Below, piece after piece: positions 4,010-29,473 of a stretch of 64,000 bases of DNA (position 1 is its first letter; every line of letters starts with the position of its first letter). The notes beneath the pieces are model-generated. The model did no database searches and was not told the origin of the DNA. It saw nothing but the letters and a program-made list of their open reading frames with translations. Origin of the DNA: Clostridia bacterium (GTDB lineage Bacteria > Bacillota > Clostridia > Christensenellales > UBA1242); the NCBI GenBank assembly GCA_017467585.1, contig JAFUSR010000004.1, forward strand, positions 434,178-498,177. Reading direction: 5' to 3'. The position numbers and the translations under genes are program-made.

Positions 4010-4065
4010 CTAACAAAAAAAACCTGTCAGTTTAGTCTAATCGATTTGAAACTTGCTAAATACTT

Positions 4066-4100
4066 AACACTTTAACTTGAAAAAGTTAGAGTGTTTTTTA
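4066..4100 (+). terminator. Intrinsic terminator after the 3437..4009 gene
   Basis: 12-bp stem AACACTTTAACT/AGTTAGAGTGTT (one G-T pair), 6-nt loop, then TTTTTT. Confidence 0.65.
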
Positions 4101-4235
4101 ATTCTCTCTTAACCAGCCAACAAAACGGATATTATGCCGTTGTCATAGGTTGTCGTTATCGTTTTAACAATTATACTTATTAGACATACATTTTAACCTT
4201 GACAACAAAGAATATTCGTTTAAACTAAAAAACAA

Positions 4236-4379
4236 CGAGAAAAAAGAGAAAGAGTGTCGTGCGAATGCTAACGCTAGCACACACTCTTTCTTCTAACCAA
4301 GTTTGTTTATATCGTGCTTGTCTTCGGTGGAGCGAAGCGACACCGACTTGTATCAAGACAAGCACATGTTTAAATGCCA
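4236..4379 (-). ncRNA. Candidate structured RNA (or ssDNA-form element), copy 1, paralogous to 25832..26001
   Basis: Minus-strand reading: TGGCATTTAAAC, then an 11-bp stem (GTGCTTGTCTT/AAGACAAGCAC) enclosing a 5-bp stem (CGGTG/CACCG), a linker containing TAAACAAACTTG, then a 10+4-bp hairpin and T-tract. The 66-nt core matches copy 2 at 64/66 positions. No convincing promoter found. Confidence 0.4.
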
Positions 4380-4469
4380 CGTTAATAAATTTAGAAAATT
4401 TGCTTAAAATTAATATAAAAATAAATAGACATATGTTATAATAAATATACAAGAGTTTTAGGAGGAATT

Positions 4470-7310
4470 ATGGAAAAAATAAAAAGAAGAAGTTTTTTAA
4501 TTATTTTTGCTTTAATTTTGATTCTGCCATTTGCATTTATTTTAACTGCTTGTGGTGGGGAAACATCTAAGTCAAAGGAAATAACAGATTTAAGAATTAG
4601 GCTTGGAGAAAACGAATGGGCTAATAGTATAAGCGTTGATTATGGAACAACAATCGGAGAGATGTTTGAGGATGCAACATTCTATTTTGTTTATAGCGAT
4701 GGTGAGAAGAAAGATGTTGTTGAGAGTAATTTTTCTGAAAGCGAATGGAATGAAATCTCAAACTCTTATGCTGAACAATATTTTGTTCAAATTGTAAATG
4801 AAGTAACTGGGGAAAGTAATTACGAGCCATACACTGGCAACACAACTTCAAGAGCCGTTCTTGAGGTTGGTCAGTATAGAGTAGATATTTCACTTAAGAA
4901 TAAGACAGCCTCCATTTATGTGAGTGTTTATCAAGCTTCACTGCAGTCAAAACAGTTGTCAGTTGTTATTTTGCCAAACGAGAATAACAATTATGGTAGT
5001 AAACTTAATGCTGTGCAAACTTATAAATATGGAATGCCTATAAATCATTTTGAAAATGATGAGGAAAACTACACCTCTGATTATAAAATTTATGTTATAG
5101 ATAAACAAAACAATAACAAGGTGCTTTCTGGCACAGATGTTAAACAGGTTTATGCTTTGCCAGAAGTTTATGAAGGTGGGGTTTATTCTTCTTTTGACGA
5201 CATTGAAGAAGGCGACAACTTGCTTGAATATTATAATACAATCGAGGTTTTGGACGATTCTAGCAATATTGATGAAAGGGTCACTTTTCAAAAGAAACAA
5301 GAGTTTTTGCTTGCATATGGATGGCAAATCACAACAGGACACAACTATTCTGATAATTCTCTTATACTGCAAACAGAAAGATTAAAACCAGGCAATTATC
5401 ATTTGTTTGCAAATTATGAGAGCAAAAACTATCAATCTATATACACAGAGCCACTTACCGAACTTGTTGTTGAAAAAGGTGTTTTTGACTTAAAAAAGGC
5501 TATTAGATATAGTGGTCAAGAATGGAGCGAAGAAAATGCTGAAGAAATTATAAGCAAAGTAAAAATAAACATAAACTATACCTTTAATTTAGATTCCCCA
5601 CTTAACACAGTGGATTATTATGGAAATGTGGTAAAAGCTCTCACCGCTACACAACTCAACCAATACAATGTTTCAGCAAATGCTGATTACAATTCTGACA
5701 ATGCCTTTTCAGATGTTGACTTTGGATATGCTGGAGGTGGATACACAGGGCTTAGCTTAGGAAAATTTAGGCTTGTTGAGAAAGATGCAAATAGAAAAGA
5801 TATCAGATTTGACTGTGACAGTATTTTAGATGAAAGTGTGAAATTTGTATATATTCTTGATAATAATGATTATTATGAAAATGACCCTACAGTTTATACA
5901 ACAGATGACTTTGATGAAGTTTCGCTTAACATTTCAAAAGGTCAGGTTTCAAGACCATATGCCTCAATTGGAAATAATCTTTCAAGAGAATATACCGGCG
6001 AGAGTCAAACAGTTGAAAATGCTGGGTTAAATATAGATAATTACGATAAGGCGCTTCTTGAGCAAATAGGCATATATAGTGCAACTGAAATAGGCAACTA
6101 TTCAATCACATTCAAACTTAAAGACAGCACAAACTTCTGCTTCAGAGAAGAAGACAATAGTTATAACTATGGCGAAGATGATGGAAATGGTGGAAGAACA
6201 TTTACCTGGGCAATCACACCTATTGAATTTAGTGCCTGGGACTGGGGATATGATCATCTTGAAGGAAGCTACAACGAAGAACAACTTGAGTATGTAAGTA
6301 GCGTGCAATATATTTCTGGAGTTCATACATTAAGGGTTTCTCTTCCAAAAGACAGCAAATATGATTTGCTTAAATCGAAAGTTCCAACAGCTAAAATTGT
6401 TTGGGAAAGAGTGGAAACAAACAATGATGCCATTGCAACACTTACTCCAGATGGAGATGATTTAGTTATTACTTTTGCAAGCGAAGGATATGTCAATCTC
6501 AAGGCAACAATTGCAGAAACAGACTACTCTTTGGCTTTTGAAAATGCAAACTTACAAGTTGTTATAAACAACGCAAGTTTCACACAAGAACAAAAGGCAG
6601 CAATTTTGGCCGAAATTGGTGCAGAAGAAAAAGATAACGATGTATATGGACTAGATGCAAATCACACGATTAGAATTAGCAGAATTTCAATGCTTCTTCC
6701 AAATGTTTTGCCAGATTACACAGATGTGCTTAATCCACCAGCAACAGCAGACCTTGGAGAATGGAAAATATACTACAATGATGGAAATGAATACATTGAA
6801 AAACACAATGGTTCTCACCTTGACGGCGAAGACACTATTGGCTGGATGTTTAGATTTATTCCAAGTGATGATATGTTTAATGGACTTTGGGTCTATGTTG
6901 ATTTCATAAATGACATTGAATTCTATAACGAAGATATTCCAACGGAAGCTATTGATGCTCTTAAACAAGATGTCCCATTTACATTTGATACAACAACAAA
7001 TAAATATATAGCAACAAACTCTATCACTATGGAAAGAACTGGAAATTCAGTAATGTTGCCAGACAATACTCTTGTTGTGACATCTGAAAATGGTGGATAT
7101 CTTGAATATGAAGGCATTGAAGGAAAGTGGAGAGTTTATGCTGATGATGTTCCTTTTGAAAATAGATCAAACTATTATTTCGATGTTGAAGGTCAATCTG
7201 AAGAATGGATAACATCAAGTGAAAGAGTTTGGACAATTCAATTTGTTCCTAGAAATACAGGCTATAATAATGTAGTTATAAACGTTAATGTAATTATTCC
7301 AAATAATTAA
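4470..7310 (+). CDS. Large surface lipoprotein, function unknown
   Basis: 946 aa. Signal peptide with lipobox LTAC-GG. Asn/Tyr/Glu-rich extracellular-type composition. RBS AGGAGG. Extended -10 TGTTATAAT at 4434-4442. Confidence 0.75.
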   Translation: MEKIKRRSFLIIFALILILPFAFILTACGGETSKSKEITDLRIRLGENEWANSISVDYGTTIGEMFEDATFYFVYSDGEKKDVVESNFSESEWNEISNSYAEQYFVQIVNEVTGESNYEPYTGNTTSRAVLEVGQYRVDISLKNKTASIYVSVYQASLQSKQLSVVILPNENNNYGSKLNAVQTYKYGMPINHFENDEENYTSDYKIYVIDKQNNNKVLSGTDVKQVYALPEVYEGGVYSSFDDIEEGDNLLEYYNTIEVLDDSSNIDERVTFQKKQEFLLAYGWQITTGHNYSDNSLILQTERLKPGNYHLFANYESKNYQSIYTEPLTELVVEKGVFDLKKAIRYSGQEWSEENAEEIISKVKININYTFNLDSPLNTVDYYGNVVKALTATQLNQYNVSANADYNSDNAFSDVDFGYAGGGYTGLSLGKFRLVEKDANRKDIRFDCDSILDESVKFVYILDNNDYYENDPTVYTTDDFDEVSLNISKGQVSRPYASIGNNLSREYTGESQTVENAGLNIDNYDKALLEQIGIYSATEIGNYSITFKLKDSTNFCFREEDNSYNYGEDDGNGGRTFTWAITPIEFSAWDWGYDHLEGSYNEEQLEYVSSVQYISGVHTLRVSLPKDSKYDLLKSKVPTAKIVWERVETNNDAIATLTPDGDDLVITFASEGYVNLKATIAETDYSLAFENANLQVVINNASFTQEQKAAILAEIGAEEKDNDVYGLDANHTIRISRISMLLPNVLPDYTDVLNPPATADLGEWKIYYNDGNEYIEKHNGSHLDGEDTIGWMFRFIPSDDMFNGLWVYVDFINDIEFYNEDIPTEAIDALKQDVPFTFDTTTNKYIATNSITMERTGNSVMLPDNTLVVTSENGGYLEYEGIEGKWRVYADDVPFENRSNYYFDVEGQSEEWITSSERVWTIQFVPRNTGYNNVVINVNVIIPNN

Positions 7311-7872: not shown

Positions 7873-8592
7873 TTATAATTCAACTTTAGAAAAGATATAG
7901 TTATCTGCAAATTTTCTTGCGCGCTCAAGTTCGCTTTGGCTGTTAACGTGAAAGGCGAGCAGTGGCAAATTTTTATACTTTTTAACAAATCTGTTAGGCA
8001 AGTCACAAGATTCATAAATAATAAAGTTTGGCTCAGAGACGGTGTCGTTAAGTTTCATGCGCTTATATGCAGACCTTGTGAAAAAAGGAAGGGCAGAGCC
8101 TTTATAAAAACTGCTAATTTGACCCCTTTTAACTTTTGGTGCATGTTCTTTGAACCATTCAAGTGTAAAAGGATTTGCGCTGGCAACGGCAAATTCTCCC
8201 TTATATCCTTGAAGGGTTTTCCAAACATATTTTTCATAGTGAGGAGTGTCCAAACTCTTAATATTTACAATAACAGGAACTTGTCCGTTAACAAATTCAA
8301 GAACTTCCAAAAGTGTAGGAATCTTCTCGTGAGAGCCGGCGAGATAAAGTGTGTTAATGTCTGCGAGAGAGCAGTGTCTAACAAAGCCATCACTGTTTGT
8401 CATTCTTCCAAGAGTGCTGTCAGAAAAAACAACAATAGAGTTGTCTGAAAGTGCTCTAACATCAAGGCAGAGCCCATATCCTTTTTCAACAGCGAGTTTA
8501 ATTGCCTGCATGCTGTTTTCAGGAATTTCATCATTAAAAAGTCCTTTGTGAGAGATTGGTGTGTGTCTAATCCAGTTGTCGAAATTGTTCAT
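7873..8592 (-). CDS. Glycerophosphodiester phosphodiesterase (GDPD) family protein
   Basis: 239 aa. N-terminal SHKG..ENS..A...A...G, then LDVR, FSDSTLGRMTN and KIPTLLEVLE, matching the GDPD motif order. Confidence 0.7.
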   Translation of the reverse strand: MNNFDNWIRHTPISHKGLFNDEIPENSMQAIKLAVEKGYGLCLDVRALSDNSIVVFSDSTLGRMTNSDGFVRHCSLADINTLYLAGSHEKIPTLLEVLEFVNGQVPVIVNIKSLDTPHYEKYVWKTLQGYKGEFAVASANPFTLEWFKEHAPKVKRGQISSFYKGSALPFFTRSAYKRMKLNDTVSEPNFIIYESCDLPNRFVKKYKNLPLLAFHVNSQSELERARKFADNYIFSKVEL

Positions 8593-10603: not shown

Positions 10604-11752
10604 GTGGCAAAAAAAGATATTAGCTTGTATATTCATATTCCATTTTGCAACAGCAAGTGTAACTATTGTGCATTTGTTTCTCACGTGGGAACAGAATCAG
10701 AAAAAGATTCTTACGTAAAAGATTTGATTGCTGAAATCAAAATGAGAGCGCAAGAATATAACCAATATTTCAGTGTTTGTAGCATTTATATTGGTGGCGG
10801 CACACCATCTTGCATGAACAACTATGCAATTCGCGACATTTTAACTTGCATCTACAAAAATTTTAATGTAAAAAACTCTGCAGAAATCACAATCGAAGCA
10901 AACCCAAATGCAGTCACCAGAGCCAAAATCAGAGAATACATTCTCTCTGGCGTAAACCGTTTTAGTGTTGGCCTTCAATGCACAAACCAAAAGGTTCTTA
11001 GCAGCATGGGTCGAACTCACACAGTTGAAGATTTCGATAACACAATTGAAAACATACGTGAGCAGGGAATATCAAACATCAGTGCAGACATAATGATTGG
11101 TTATCCTGGTCAAACTCTTAAACACGTTCAAGAGAGTGTGGATCACTTGATTGAACTTAAAATCCCTCACATTTCGTGTTACATGCTTCAGGTTGAAGAG
11201 GGAACAAAACTTAAAGCTCTCGTTGATAATAATGCTGCTTATCTTATTACAGAAGACAAAGTGATTGCAATGTATAACTATGTTTTGAAAGAACTCAAAG
11301 ATAACGGCTACGAGCGTTACGAACTTTCAAACTTTTCAAAACCTGGATTTGCAAGTTACCATAACCAAGTTTATTGGAACAGAACAGACTATTTAGGTTT
11401 TGGTGTTTCAGCTCATAGTTATGTGTCTGGCGTTCGCTTTTCTAACACAGACAGCATAAGCGAATATCATCGCTGCATCAATGAACTTAAAAAACCACCA
11501 GTGGCCAGCGCACAAGAACTCACCAAACAAGAGAAAAAAGAGGAAGCAATAATGCTCTCGCTTCGAACTGCAAAGGGGCTCGACACAAAGGCTTATGAAG
11601 CAGAATTTGGTGAGAACTTAATTGCGGCAAAAAAAGACAAACTTGCAAACCTAATCAAAAATGGATTTTTAATTCTCGACAAAGAGGGAATTTTAAAAGC
11701 CACCGACAAAGGTTATTTAGTTTTAAATAGATTAATCTACGAAATAATATAA
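10604..11752 (+). CDS. hemW: Radical SAM heme chaperone HemW (HemN-like)
   Basis: GTG start. CNSKCNYC Cx3Cx2C motif. HemN_C-like tail. Conserved position after lepA. Confidence 0.85.
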   Translation: MAKKDISLYIHIPFCNSKCNYCAFVSHVGTESEKDSYVKDLIAEIKMRAQEYNQYFSVCSIYIGGGTPSCMNNYAIRDILTCIYKNFNVKNSAEITIEANPNAVTRAKIREYILSGVNRFSVGLQCTNQKVLSSMGRTHTVEDFDNTIENIREQGISNISADIMIGYPGQTLKHVQESVDHLIELKIPHISCYMLQVEEGTKLKALVDNNAAYLITEDKVIAMYNYVLKELKDNGYERYELSNFSKPGFASYHNQVYWNRTDYLGFGVSAHSYVSGVRFSNTDSISEYHRCINELKKPPVASAQELTKQEKKEEAIMLSLRTAKGLDTKAYEAEFGENLIAAKKDKLANLIKNGFLILDKEGILKATDKGYLVLNRLIYEII

Positions 11753-24948: not shown

Positions 24949-25827
24949 ATGGAAGATATTTCTTACAAATGTAATTTTGTTGTAGATAAAAGCAAGTGTA
25001 TAAAATGTGGCAAATGTAAAAATGTTTGCTCTGGAATGGTTATTGAATACGATAAACAAGGTTTTCCATACATCAAGCCATTTGAGCGCTTTGGTTGGCG
25101 TGGCTGTTGGAGATGTGAACACTGCCTTGCGGTTTGCCCTGTGGGAGCTATTTCAATCTTTAACAAAAAGCCAGAGAACTCACTCCCACCACCAGACAAA
25201 AACCTTGGCGAACAAATGGAAAGACTTGTCAAATTCCGCAGGTCTTGTAGAAGATTTTTGGATAAAAATGTTGAGCCAGAGATTATAGACAAAATTCTGT
25301 CGGCACTAGAAAATGCCCCAACTGGTGGAAATGCCCAAAATGTAGAATATACTGTGATAGATGACAAAGAACGAGTAAAACAAATTTGGAATGTTGCCTA
25401 TAAAAAAATGGATGAGCTTGCTCGTGAGCATATTTACACTCATAGTTTTAGTGATTTCTACTATAAAAAGATGAAGGAATCTGAAAAAACAGTCCGAAAA
25501 AATGATTTGCTTTTTTGTGGTGCTCCACATCTATTTATTGCTCACGAAAAATGCGTGGGCAAATGGGCAGAAGATAGCAAAAACAACTGCAACATAGCAA
25601 CTGCATATTTTGACCTGCTTGCAAATTCATTTGGTCTTGGAACGGTCATCATGTCATATTCAAGTGAAGTCCTAAACGAACTTGTTCCAGAAGCAAGAGA
25701 AATGCTAAACATTCCAAAAGACCACTTTACAGGTCTCATTGTTGGATTTGGTTATCCAGAGATAAAATATGCCCGTGGAACGCAGAAAAATAGAAAAGCA
25801 AAAATACATAGATACAGAAAAGAATAA
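24949..25827 (+). CDS. 2x[4Fe-4S] ferredoxin domain fused to a nitroreductase-family domain
   Basis: CIKCGKCKNVC and CEHCLAVCP motifs, then nitroreductase-like RRSCRRF, PTGGNAQN. Confidence 0.75.
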   Translation: MEDISYKCNFVVDKSKCIKCGKCKNVCSGMVIEYDKQGFPYIKPFERFGWRGCWRCEHCLAVCPVGAISIFNKKPENSLPPPDKNLGEQMERLVKFRRSCRRFLDKNVEPEIIDKILSALENAPTGGNAQNVEYTVIDDKERVKQIWNVAYKKMDELAREHIYTHSFSDFYYKKMKESEKTVRKNDLLFCGAPHLFIAHEKCVGKWAEDSKNNCNIATAYFDLLANSFGLGTVIMSYSSEVLNELVPEAREMLNIPKDHFTGLIVGFGYPEIKYARGTQKNRKAKIHRYRKE

Positions 25828-25831
25828 ATCA

Positions 25832-26001
25832 TGGCATTTAAACGTGTGCTTGTCTTGATACAAGTCGGTGTCGCTTTGCTCCACCGAAGACAAGCACACT
25901 CCTAAACAAAACTTGCTGAACTTAAACTGCTTGAATGGAAAATAACATGAGCGAAAAAGGCGTCCACATGCTGAAGCGATTGTGGTACGCCTTCTTTTTT
26001 T
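25832..26001 (+). ncRNA. Candidate structured RNA (or ssDNA-form element), copy 2, paralogous to 4236..4379
   Basis: Starts 5 nt after the nitroreductase stop. Core 25832-25897 matches the reverse complement of 4314-4379 at 64/66 positions. Ends in a 12-bp bulged hairpin (25957-25993) and CTTTTTTT. Confidence 0.4.
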
Positions 26002-26632
26002 GCTCATGTATATATTTTCACAGGAACATTCAAGCAGCAAACTATTCTCTAAAAACATTTGTTAACTCTTGTTTTTATTTGCGAATACTTGTAAATAGTT
26101 GTGCCCAGTACATGGTATTTTCTATTTTTTCGTGATACTCTCAAATTGCCTTAGCGAACAAGTACACATAAAGTAAGCATAAATTCAGCATACTTTCCTT
26201 ATTTGGGTACTTCACATTCCGTATATCTTTATGCTAAGGTAAAATCGCTTTTAGTTGAAAGTCGACTAACTAAAAGCTAAGTAATATCAAATGAAATCAA
26301 AAACAAGGCATATAAACATCAAGAAGATGTCAAATAATGTCATTCACTTTTTGACTTTTAAATGATATTACTAAATTGTGTTTTTAATTGGTGCACAAGT
26401 TAAAAATGCAAAAACTGAATAAAAAGGACAACGCAAATGTTTAACAAATTAGAATTAGAATAGAGTTGGTTAAGTTTAGTTAAAAAGAATTCGTGTCGCA
26501 CAATGGCATATTAAAAAAATCACCTACCCAACCTTAGGGGAAATATAAGGCAGTTAACATTTTGGCGTAGAAAAAATAATCTTTTTCTATGTCTTTTTTA
26601 ATTCCCAAAAATCTAAAAAAGGAGTTAAAAAA

Positions 26633-26761
26633 ATGCAAAAAACAACTAACGAAATCAAAAATGTGCTAGATTTATCGCTTATTAACCATGAGTTTATTGT
26701 TGCCATGCTGAATTTAATCCTTAAAGAAAAGGAGAAGCAAAATGGACTATCAAGAAACTAA
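26633..26761 (+). CDS. Possible 42-aa small ORF upstream of rep
   Basis: AAGGAG 7 nt upstream. MQKTTNEIKNVLDLSLINHEFIVAMLNLILKEKEKQNGLSRN. Overlaps the rep start. No homology recognised. Confidence 0.25.
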   Translation: MQKTTNEIKNVLDLSLINHEFIVAMLNLILKEKEKQNGLSRN

Positions 26762-27617
26762 AGTATATTTCGATGGTAGTCACTATATTGGCATACCAAA
26801 AACGACTCAAAGTTGGAAAAAGAAAAAGCATAAATCAGCAAACCCTACTGAAACAGAATCGAAAGTTAAAGAAATGTTAAACGAATGTACTGATGAAACT
26901 AGAAAGGAAAAGAAAGAACGAATTGTAAATGAACTGAACGAAAAAGTAAAAGATATTGAACAAACTGAACAGATTGTAAATAAAGTAATTGAAAAAGAAA
27001 AACGAAATCGTATTGTTAGACTCACGAGATTATTCAGAAAAGCCAATTTGCAAGAATGGAACTACTTTTGTACTTTCACTTATGATTCCACAAAACTTAC
27101 TGAACAAGAATTTAGAGTTAAATTTCTAAATTGCTTAAGACATCTATCCACTCGCAAAGGTTGGAAATATATTGGTGTCTTTGAAATAAGCCCTGAACAG
27201 AAAAGATTACATTTTCATGGAATATTTGTAATAGCCGAAATGGTTGGCGAATTAAAAGAAACTAAAGATTATTCAACCAGAACTCATCAAATGCAAATTA
27301 CACACCAAAACATATTCTTTTTGGAGAGATTTGGAAGAAATGACTTTAGCAAAATAGAAAATGACAACCATACTCAAGAAGCTATTATGTATATGCTCAA
27401 ATATATTAGAAAAACTGGTGAAAAAGTAATCTATTCAAAGCACTTACAGACATTTTTTATAACAGATATACTCGAAGATGATGTTGTTTGCACTATCGGA
27501 CAAGAAGATAGAAAAATACTACTATTTGACAACTTTAGATGTTTGGATTTTTCCACTGGAGAGGTTTTAGGAACTGTTAGCAAAGAGTTAATAAATAAGC
27601 TACCAAAGGGTTATTAA
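26742..27617 (+). CDS. HUH-superfamily rolling-circle replication initiator-like protein
   Basis: 291 aa. Motif I FCTFTYD, motif II (HUH) LHFHGIFV, motif III YMLKYIRK, in canonical order. Confidence 0.7.
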   Translation: MDYQETKVYFDGSHYIGIPKTTQSWKKKKHKSANPTETESKVKEMLNECTDETRKEKKERIVNELNEKVKDIEQTEQIVNKVIEKEKRNRIVRLTRLFRKANLQEWNYFCTFTYDSTKLTEQEFRVKFLNCLRHLSTRKGWKYIGVFEISPEQKRLHFHGIFVIAEMVGELKETKDYSTRTHQMQITHQNIFFLERFGRNDFSKIENDNHTQEAIMYMLKYIRKTGEKVIYSKHLQTFFITDILEDDVVCTIGQEDRKILLFDNFRCLDFSTGEVLGTVSKELINKLPKGY

Positions 27618-27792
27618 TCTTTCGCCCGCGAATTGTGCACAAAAACTCTTAGTTATCAAGGGTAAATTGTATTGCTTTTCGCAACCCTTGACAACTAAAG
27701 AAAGATTATAACTCTTTAAAATATTTATCCCTTTTTGTTCTTTCGCTGGGTATCGAAAGATAAATAAAAAAAATAAAAGGAGATAAAACCAA

Positions 27793-29301
27793 ATGAAAAC
27801 AGCAGTAATATATGCTAGATATTCCAGTACAAACCAAACTGAACAAAGTATTGAAGGTCAAGTGCATGTATGTCAAGACTTTGCGAAACGCAACAACATC
27901 ATCATAGTTGATTCATATATCGACCGAGCAATAAGTGGAACAACAGATGAAAGAGATTCATTCCAAAGAATGTTAAAAGATAGCAACAACAAAAAATGGA
28001 ATTATGTTTTGGTGTATAAGTTAGACAGATTTGCTAGAAGCAAATATGAAGCTGCAATACACAGAAAACACTTAAAAGACAATGGAATTAAATTATTGTC
28101 TGCTATGGAAAACATCCCAGAAACACCTGAAGGAGTTTTGCTTGAATCACTCTTAGAAGGAATGAACCAATACTTTAGCGAAGAACTTGCACAAAAAGTA
28201 AGTCGTGGACTACACGAATCAAGAATGAAAGGACATGTTATAGGAGATGTATCTTTCGGCTATATAAAGGAGAATAAAATGTTAAAGATAAACGAAGGAG
28301 AAGCAATAATCTTAAAAAGAATATTTGAAGATTATGCAAGTGGAAAAACAATATTGCAAATTTCAAGAGATTTTGAAAAAGAAAATATAACAAGAAATGG
28401 ACACAAGTTTATACCACAAACAATAAGAGATATGCTTAAAAGAAAACTATATACTGGCGAATATTCAGTTAATGGCAAAGTATATGACAAAATCTACCCA
28501 CAAATAATAACCAAAGAACTATTTGAAAAAGTGCAAAAAAGAATGGACTTAACAAGATATGGTTGCAGAAAAGATAATCATGAAATATTTAGAATTAAAG
28601 ATAAATTATATTGTGGACATTGTAATAGAAAAATGTATCCATTTTCAACAAAATCTAGAAATGGAAACTATCTAAGATATTACAAATGTATTTCAACAAA
28701 GAAAGATGATAACTGCTTAACTAGAATAATTGAAAAGAACTTTATAGAAGGTGTTGTAGATAAATTCTTTAAACAACAATTCACTATACAAAAGAATCTA
28801 GATACAATAACCGATTTAATCTATGAAGAAAACAAGAAACGAACAAAGAACAATAATTCACTTATAAGCATTAAATCTGACTTGCAAAGAGTAAATACAG
28901 CCATTTCAAATATAATGTCTGCAATAGAAAAAGGAATAATCACTGAAACAACAAAATCTAGATTAGAAGAACTTGAATTAAAAAGAAAAGATTTAAGCGA
29001 AAAATTGATAATTGAAGAATCTAAAGTTAGCTATGAATTAACAAAAGATAATATACAGAATTTCTTTAAACTAACAATGAAAGAATGTCCTGACAAAGCA
29101 ATAGATTTATTTCTAAAGTTTGTTAAAGTATATGAAGATAAAATAGAAATTGGACTTAATTATTCAATAAACCAAAGCAATACTGAATATGTGCCAATTA
29201 AAAGTTATGCATTTACTGAAACACTTGAAATAACTAGAACTTTCAAAGGTGGAACAACTAGAACAAAAACTTTAACTTATGATGTCTATTCAGTAGTCTA
29301 G
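27793..29301 (+). CDS. Large serine recombinase (integrase)
   Basis: 502 aa. Resolvase-type N-terminus AVIYARYSSTNQ..SIEGQ, recombinase domain, Zn-ribbon CGHCNRK..YYKC, coiled-coil tail. Confidence 0.85.
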   Translation: MKTAVIYARYSSTNQTEQSIEGQVHVCQDFAKRNNIIIVDSYIDRAISGTTDERDSFQRMLKDSNNKKWNYVLVYKLDRFARSKYEAAIHRKHLKDNGIKLLSAMENIPETPEGVLLESLLEGMNQYFSEELAQKVSRGLHESRMKGHVIGDVSFGYIKENKMLKINEGEAIILKRIFEDYASGKTILQISRDFEKENITRNGHKFIPQTIRDMLKRKLYTGEYSVNGKVYDKIYPQIITKELFEKVQKRMDLTRYGCRKDNHEIFRIKDKLYCGHCNRKMYPFSTKSRNGNYLRYYKCISTKKDDNCLTRIIEKNFIEGVVDKFFKQQFTIQKNLDTITDLIYEENKKRTKNNNSLISIKSDLQRVNTAISNIMSAIEKGIITETTKSRLEELELKRKDLSEKLIIEESKVSYELTKDNIQNFFKLTMKECPDKAIDLFLKFVKVYEDKIEIGLNYSINQSNTEYVPIKSYAFTETLEITRTFKGGTTRTKTLTYDVYSVV

Positions 29302-29312
29302 ACAAAGAAAAA

Positions 29313-29345
29313 AGAGCATATTCAAATATATGCTCTTTATCTTTT
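29313..29345 (+). terminator. Intrinsic terminator after the recombinase gene
   Basis: AGAGCATA-N8-TATGCTCT then TTATCTTTT. Confidence 0.6.
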
Positions 29346-29473
29346 AGTCTAAAAACTGCAAGTTTCAATTTTCTATGACTAAAAGCCAGTTTTTTTGTTT
29401 GCAAAAATAAATCAGCATTATTATAATTATTCAAATAAATAGTAATTTATAGAAAAAATGTTCGACAAATTTG

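Follow-up and report, generated by a model that had tools for sequence, protein, structure and literature searches.

An integrated rolling-circle Rep element family in gut Clostridia carries a covarying hairpin, a candidate Rep origin, at its left terminus

The window, as the whole stretch of 64,000 nt analysed here is called, comes from a genome of 973,583 bp in 4 contigs (G000), and holds two inverted copies of a conserved core. As first described, 64 of 66 positions agree between 25832-25897 and the reverse complement of 4314-4379; the mismatches are at position 13 (A/G) and position 46 (C/T). A 25-nt stretch of the core is found at exactly these two places in the window, and shuffles give an expectation of none. 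Copy 2 stands at the left end of a full-length integrated element with the following parts:

25832-29382, plus strand: full-length integrated element, 3,551 bp, between a nitroreductase-like gene (stop at 25827) and comM (29520)
25844-25899, plus strand: core hairpin of copy 2, with a 13-bp stem in this copy
25949-26005, plus strand: hairpin H2 of the full element, a paired A-run/T-run with an outer GAGC/GCTC closure
26742-27617, plus strand: HUH rolling-circle Rep, 291 aa, with motifs FCTFTY, HFHG and YMLKY (Pfam PF23343 REP_ORF2-G2P, E = 2.8e-10)
27652-27695, plus strand: inverted-repeat hairpin H3 (GTTATCAAGGGT...ACCCTTGACAAC), with a 12-bp repeat, upstream of the recombinase gene
27793-29301, plus strand: large serine recombinase, 502 aa (Pfam PF00239 Resolvase, PF07508 Recombinase, PF13408 Zn_ribbon_recom)
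29311-29382, plus strand: terminator hairpin H4 and right-end motif GTTTCAATTTTCTATGACTAA

The core of copy 2 begins 4 nt past the stop codon of the nitroreductase-like gene, and comM, dprA, topA and trmFO lie to the right of the element. The Rep motifs FCTFTY, HFHG (HUH) and Y-x-x-K-Y are invariant in 15 homologues, which include both of the Rep types described below. The 502-aa protein combines the Resolvase catalytic, Recombinase and zinc ribbon domains of a large serine recombinase, and matches the integrase family PHROG 95 (E = 1e-91). Between H2 and rep, the window element has about 740 nt in which no convincing gene was seen; across elements, this space is 0.6–2 kb long and differs in its ORFs, one of which encodes a 209-aa protein without a Pfam match (L035 8560-9189, in G024), and it looks like a cargo slot. 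Genome G024 keeps the same order of element parts. The genome of the window encodes one Rep and one cognate recombinase; a second homologue of the large serine recombinase is found at G000:C4:27857-28891 (38% identical over 342 aa), with no core hairpin reported nearby.

The ends of the element were fixed by three independent insertions, each with unrelated flanks. Similarity starts on the left at (A)TGGCATTTAAAC (window, L077 and L083) and stops on the right at ...CTATGACTAA (window and L077), H4 being followed in the full element by ...GCAAGTTTCAATTTTCTATGACTAA, so that the bounds 25832-29382 are accurate to ±2 nt. At all three loci the ends are discrete and the flanks unrelated, with no long direct repeats, as in integrative elements. 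Relatives in public contigs, whose Reps are 92–93% identical at the protein level and whose DNA is 87–94% identical, also sit at unrelated sites. The L083 copy lies in a contig of 8.6 kb from deer gut (JAGBBT010000116.1), binned as 'Treponema sp.', and is a full-element copy with a Rep 92% identical (protein) and about 90% identity in DNA; either a binning error or a transfer across phyla would account for it. Another public contig, L091, holds three hairpin copies (4921-5005, 11277-11363 and 11476-11560) and two opposed recombinase genes within about 7 kb, which suggests two elements side by side or nested.

Copy 1, on the other strand, is a complete but gene-less version of the same element:

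4032-4379, minus strand: complete gene-less miniature, 348 bp, from left end TGGCATTTAAAC to right end GTTTCAAATCGATTAGACTAA
4366-4379, minus strand: left-terminal 14 nt, TGGCATTTAAACAT, where similarity between independent insertions starts
4314-4365, minus strand: core hairpin with an 11-bp stem, unpaired GATACAAGT, a 5-bp inner stem and an 11-nt loop
4236-4290, minus strand: H2, a long hairpin with a T-tract, terminator-like
4123-4221, minus strand: H3, a long imperfect inverted repeat (AAACGAATATTCTTTGTTGTCAAGG...CCTATGACAACGGCATAATATCCGTTT)
4066-4095, minus strand: H4, 13 bp, at the place of the post-recombinase terminator in full elements
4032-4052, minus strand: right-end motif GTTTCAA-N8-GACTAA, common to 32 of the 34 pattern matches surveyed

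The miniature consists of the left end with its hairpin, H2, H3 (the counterpart of the inverted repeat that precedes the recombinase gene in full elements), H4 and the right end, both coding segments being gone. Folded as single-stranded DNA, it forms four hairpins (z = -4.65). Its ends agree with those of the full-length elements and of about 30 other miniatures of 333–398 bp. The preliminary description had counted two copies of an element of ~150–170 nt, a view that has to be revised in number and in length. A third copy, at G000:C2:154764-155116, is another miniature, 79% identical to copy 1; the two have in common a module of about 350–385 nt, which fills the entire 4010-4469 intergenic region, whereas copy 2 shares only about 85 nt. 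The view that copies 1 and 2 do not stem from a recent local duplication holds.

Many genera of this GTDB family contain the long form, at 69–90% identity, and 14 of the 29 best core matches in the family sample are miniatures, with module B beginning 154–172 nt from the core start. The survey of element ends, based on 34 pattern matches, comprised 27 distinct miniatures of 333–398 bp, 5 full elements of 3.5–4.7 kb and 2 chance matches; there were 29 miniature rows, two loci having been fetched twice, and the L038 and L102 rows are the chance matches, lying inside those elements. Smaller remnants also exist, two of which are cut inside the hairpin. In L018 (G031:C19, ~1501-1590; ~90 nt) the left end is cut in the hairpin loop and joined directly to the right end, and in L040 (G036:C2, ~8001-8190; ~190 nt) the break is at CTTGATACAAG, with a hairpin and the right end attached. 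Both remnants have the same upstream flank, yet they come from different genera.

The fold of the core listed above for copy 1 had been predicted from the two window copies, and is now backed by covariation. In most copies the stem reaches further outward, up to 18 bp, and mismatch 13 sits within this extension. Among 23 copies, 86.9% of the cells pair, and none of 500 shuffles attains the observed covariation. With 71 distinct copies, 88.9% of the cells pair, compensatory changes are seen in 17 of the 22 pairs, and neither shuffles nor slid registers approach the observed pairing; this larger alignment was fitted to a covariance model, which favours the structure, and an unfitted MAFFT alignment gave the same picture. 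Selection on the structure of the hairpin, suggested from the start, is therefore real in both sets. A pseudoknot between ACUUG and CAAGU, on the other hand, was rejected, since the downstream ACUUG is kept in one subgroup of copies only. Mismatches at conserved pairs across 69 copies comprise 14 G-T and 11 A-C, so that the pairing shows no bias towards the strand that an RNA would use; it is not RNA-specific, and fits a DNA hairpin or cruciform. Downstream (3') of the core, a strong hairpin ending in a T-tract (H2) was found in 64 of the 69 distinct copies by a crude fold test run with no shuffle control, that is, a stable hairpin followed directly by a T-tract, as in intrinsic terminators.

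A covariance model built from the hairpin was then used to search the family. It found the hairpin in 73 of the 151 family genomes and in 38 of the 58 genera, with 1–11 matches in each genome, as well as in 14 genomes from at least 8 other families of the same order. The hosts are uncultured gut Clostridia with genomes of about 1 Mb. The sites are non-orthologous, patchy and multi-copy, often lie at contig ends, and share no flanking genes with one another. Genomes of the same genus are too diverged in DNA to provide empty sites; only one flanking gene has an orthologue there, with synteny lost.

The Rep is present in 28 of the 151 family genomes, and in 23 of these 28 the core lies beside it in a fixed arrangement, a positive answer to the suggested check for neighbouring HUH-Rep elements. 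Two types can be told apart. Type I Reps are at least 54% identical to the Rep of the window, and the core lies 0.9–1.9 kb upstream on the same strand in 9 of 12. Type II Reps, of 339–362 aa, are 44–50% identical to it, and the core lies about 100–250 nt downstream (in one case 670 nt) on the opposite strand in 14 of 16. Both type II exceptions abut a contig end; in G150 the expected site falls off the contig, while in G007 the contig does cover that site, but no core is found there. Similarly, among 32 loci from public metagenome-assembled genomes (MAGs) recovered through the Rep, about 25 hold core, Rep and serine recombinase in this order, and the Rep segment is inverted in two of the 32. 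The phage database yielded only two distant relatives of the Rep.

Next to the Rep, type II loci encode a Zot-like pI ATPase (phrog_197, E = 1e-8 and 2e-10; PF05707), with all genes on one strand, and their mutual similarity begins exactly at the hairpin and extends for about 7.2 kb. They look like inovirus-type prophages and combine a pI/Zot-like ATPase, a G2P-type Rep, genes on one strand and a length of about 7 kb, with no coat genes identified. Three of them (L038, G016:C2:37407-53456; L041, G008:C3; and L039, G029:C1) are inovirus-like prophages of about 7.2 kb, with the hairpin at the extreme left end, and carry, besides the Rep of 339–362 aa and the Zot-like ATPase, a gene for a 692-aa protein and several small ORFs. 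No large serine recombinase lies within 8 kb of the prophages of G016 and G008, two of the three.

The core marks the left terminus of a family of integrated HUH Rep rolling-circle elements, where it is a cis-acting DNA module; it is very probably a terminal mobile-element module and not an RNA gene. The preliminary description had allowed for the core to be the terminal sequence of an IS or MITE; this is essentially the case, although the element is not a catalogued IS. As to the role of this module, we lean slightly towards an origin or nick site for the Rep as the most likely one, and the two parts blended into one explanation, a mobile-element terminus that also holds the Rep origin, appear on the whole likely.

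The origin of phiX174 reads CAACTTG^ATATT, and the two-tyrosine YxxKY motif, as found in the Rep of this element, is associated with the phiX174 A protein. The core includes TCTTGATA, and its near-invariant unpaired segment, (G)ATACAAGT, reads TCTTGATAC together with the stem. Unpaired ACAAGT is kept in nearly all of 73 copies, and CTTGATA occurs in both window copies and in most of the 73, while copy 3 has CTTAATA. The sequence CTTGATA is the nick motif of the double-strand origin (dso) in Rep_1/pC194-type replicons (PMC10378824), and the dso of pC194 is TCTTTCTTATCTTG^ATAATA (complement of the printed strand; PMC5037232). As in phiX174 gpA and pC194-type dso systems, a cognate HUH Rep is encoded next to a site with the published motif (T)CTTGATA (PMC10378824, PMC5037232), and an inverted repeat lies beside the candidate nick region. 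However, the Rep of the window belongs to PF23343 (ORF2/G2P) and not to Rep_1, the replicon occurs in integrated rather than plasmid form, and the motif varies, with ACAAGT but not CTTGATA being near-invariant in the distant Rep-linked copies.

The other strand of the core reads ACTTGTATC, and this is the coding strand in the type II prophages, so that either strand remains a candidate for the nick. The nick would fall within unpaired GATACAAGT or within the complementary ACTTGTATC, and the Rep would then replicate the excised circle. If it is the complementary strand that is nicked, H2 would lie immediately upstream of the origin. Two further observations weigh against an origin. In both element types, 14 nt separate the hairpin from the integration junction, and it may belong to the integration machinery; besides, it is about 85–90% conserved between elements whose Reps are about 45% identical, which a packaging signal would explain equally well.

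Such a signal leads to the first alternative, in which the hairpin, alone or with H2, would be another single-strand DNA signal, namely a packaging signal recognised by an inovirus-like helper, or else the single-strand origin for the minus strand. The small elements with Rep and recombinase and the 7-kb Zot prophages have this hairpin at their head alike, and the Reps of the two are only 41–50% identical; satellites must copy the packaging signal of their helper, and miniatures that cross genus boundaries require a vehicle for transfer. H2 adjoins the core, just as single-strand origins are placed immediately upstream of the origin in rolling-circle plasmids, according to the statement of Khan 2005 as quoted in PMC5037232. 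Even so, we consider this alternative unlikely, as the near-invariant unpaired segment resembles the nick motif of the phiX/pC194 superfamily, and no conserved ssoA features (RSB, CS-6) were seen. A CS-6 sequence (TAGCGT) does occur in H2 of copy 1 only, and was taken as chance.

It is still less probable that the hairpin is a part of the attachment site or accessory to it, either as an extended P' arm or as an architectural site for the recombinase. This would agree with its constant position, since miniatures, full elements and type II prophages alike have it about 14 nt inside the left junction, and with the weak imperfect inverted repeat formed by the element ends (GTTTCAA... against the complement of ...TTTAAAC). 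Nevertheless, the type II prophages of G016 and G008 hold the hairpin, with a large serine recombinase absent from the 8 kb around them, and the duplex sites of serine integrases, of about 40–50 bp, do not explain compensatory changes in a stem-loop of 60 nt. What we do propose as the P' arm of the recombinase attachment site is the left-terminal 14 nt, whose link to the recombinase we infer.

The weakest alternative, that the core and the terminator form a structured small RNA with a transcript of its own, or else a cis-regulatory leader, as the preliminary description had envisaged for an unrecognised sRNA or riboswitch, has in its favour the covariation of the stem-loop, the T-tract hairpin that follows on the same strand and the three stem changes of copy 3, all G-U on this strand, but is highly improbable for a mobile-element terminus in which the bias towards G-U seen in copy 3 is gone in the large alignment, copies truncated within the hairpin persist, and the downstream sequence is non-coding element DNA or, 0.6–2 kb off, rep, with no consistent regulated gene. 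Nor is there room for a promoter of its own, since the element ends 14 nt upstream of the hairpin and the host DNA beyond differs at each insertion, leaving no conserved promoter. Rfam gave no match at the gathering score across the whole window, and permissive scans (E ≤ 10) of both halves of copy 1 had a best E-value of 0.33. Given the terminator look-alike H2, the core is probably a passive tail on the transcript of the upstream host gene, which would stop at H2.

Returning to the mobile-element terminus, the survey of ends gives some indication of how these elements would integrate. Left flanks are A/T-rich, with an A-run 4–9 nt from the junction, and right flanks hold 6–10 mixed bases followed by a T-run, an imperfect dyad that is what a target of a serine integrase would look like. 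No target-site duplication was found at any of the 32 genuine element ends surveyed. The serine recombinase would excise the element and integrate it at such loosely defined A-run/T-run sites in imperfect dyad symmetry, while proteins of full-length relatives, acting in trans, would see to the excision and replication of the miniatures and perhaps to their transfer. The genome of the window has no Zot-like gene, and hence no helper is visible in it. No joint between right and left end, as expected for a circle or tandem, was found in IMG/VR or JGI metagenome contigs, and in 401 family genomes matches to such a joint occurred at the rate of the reversed-pattern control. Two other explanations for the insertion sites were rejected. 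IS91-type elements insert next to a CTTG or GTTC target, which was not found at the surveyed flanks, and host terminators as targets do not agree with left flanks that lack the complement of the GC-rich segment of the right flank.

Evidence for movement between hosts comes from the miniatures. Copy 1 is 90% and 85% identical to miniatures of G016 and 83% identical to one of G008, whereas dnaK of these two genomes is 73% and 76% identical to that of the window, respectively, which indicates that miniature lineages cross genus boundaries.

RS1 and TLC of Vibrio are inovirus satellites, small Rep-bearing replicons without structural genes, and the element of the window resembles them in this; it has its hairpin in common with inovirus-like prophages. 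Similarly, pDolos (bioRxiv 10.1101/2023.11.28.569023) is a small Rep-bearing replicon without structural genes that could ride a filamentous helper; unlike the integrated window element, which is a candidate satellite, pDolos is an autonomous plasmid. The phages phiRSM1 and phiRSM3 of Ralstonia combine a G2P-type Rep with a serine recombinase for chromosomal integration (PMC4471427), and relatives of the window element share with them a Zot-like pI ATPase. Nevertheless, the phiRSM enzyme is of the small resolvase/invertase type and uses a fixed tRNA-Ser site (PMC4471427), whereas here a large recombinase of 502 aa is associated with many AT-rich intergenic sites, and the 3.55-kb window element carries no virion genes.

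On the other hand, the miniatures recall MITEs, which have been described as 'hitchers' (PMC11389934), and the derivatives of integrative mobilizable elements (PMC5704250), such as CIMEs. Like these, they are gene-less, about 350 bp long, retain both ends of the autonomous element and are present in several copies per genome (333–398 bp, no conserved ORF, 1–11 core matches per genome). However, the clear terminal inverted repeats, target-site duplications and DDE transposases of classical MITEs are not seen here, and, unlike CIMEs, these miniatures form uniform, genus-crossing lineages that keep a replication-origin-like hairpin. A further parallel is provided by the miniphages of f1/M13. These defective interfering particles keep only non-coding intergenic signals (the origin and the packaging hairpin) and need the proteins of a helper; they are laboratory episomes, whereas the miniatures are integrated in the chromosome and their dependence on a phage is putative.

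Each part of this element family has known counterparts, whether the rolling-circle Rep and its origin-like hairpin, the large serine recombinase, the inovirus-like relatives or the gene-less derivatives. Nevertheless, the literature searched yielded no published account of the family, nor of miniatures that are uniform, cross genera and retain a hairpin resembling a replication origin. A spurious candidate for a structured RNA gives way to a defined mobile-element family in little-known gut Clostridia with very small genomes, where one hairpin is common to three tiers, the inovirus-like prophages of about 7 kb, the elements of 3.5–4.7 kb with Rep and serine recombinase, and the gene-less miniatures of about 350 bp. 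As the miniatures keep exactly the non-coding modules of their parent, they provide a natural deletion map of the cis sites required for propagation. The large serine recombinase appears to be permissive, with many AT-rich sites serving as targets, and may be of interest to users of such enzymes as tools.

It is conceivable, though doubtful, that the miniatures of about 350 bp are active, protein-free 'hitchers', which would be served in trans by the recombinase and the Rep and packaged as single-stranded DNA by an inovirus-like helper. If so, this would explain the copies with 90% identity in different genera, and the miniatures would be natural, chromosomally integrating counterparts of the M13 miniphages, perhaps the first case to be described.

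As for the host locus of copy 1, the left end of the miniature lies 90 nt (4380-4469) upstream of the start of a divergent gene for a putative surface lipoprotein of 946 aa (4470-7310). The insertion is located inside the promoter region of this gene, and could affect its expression.
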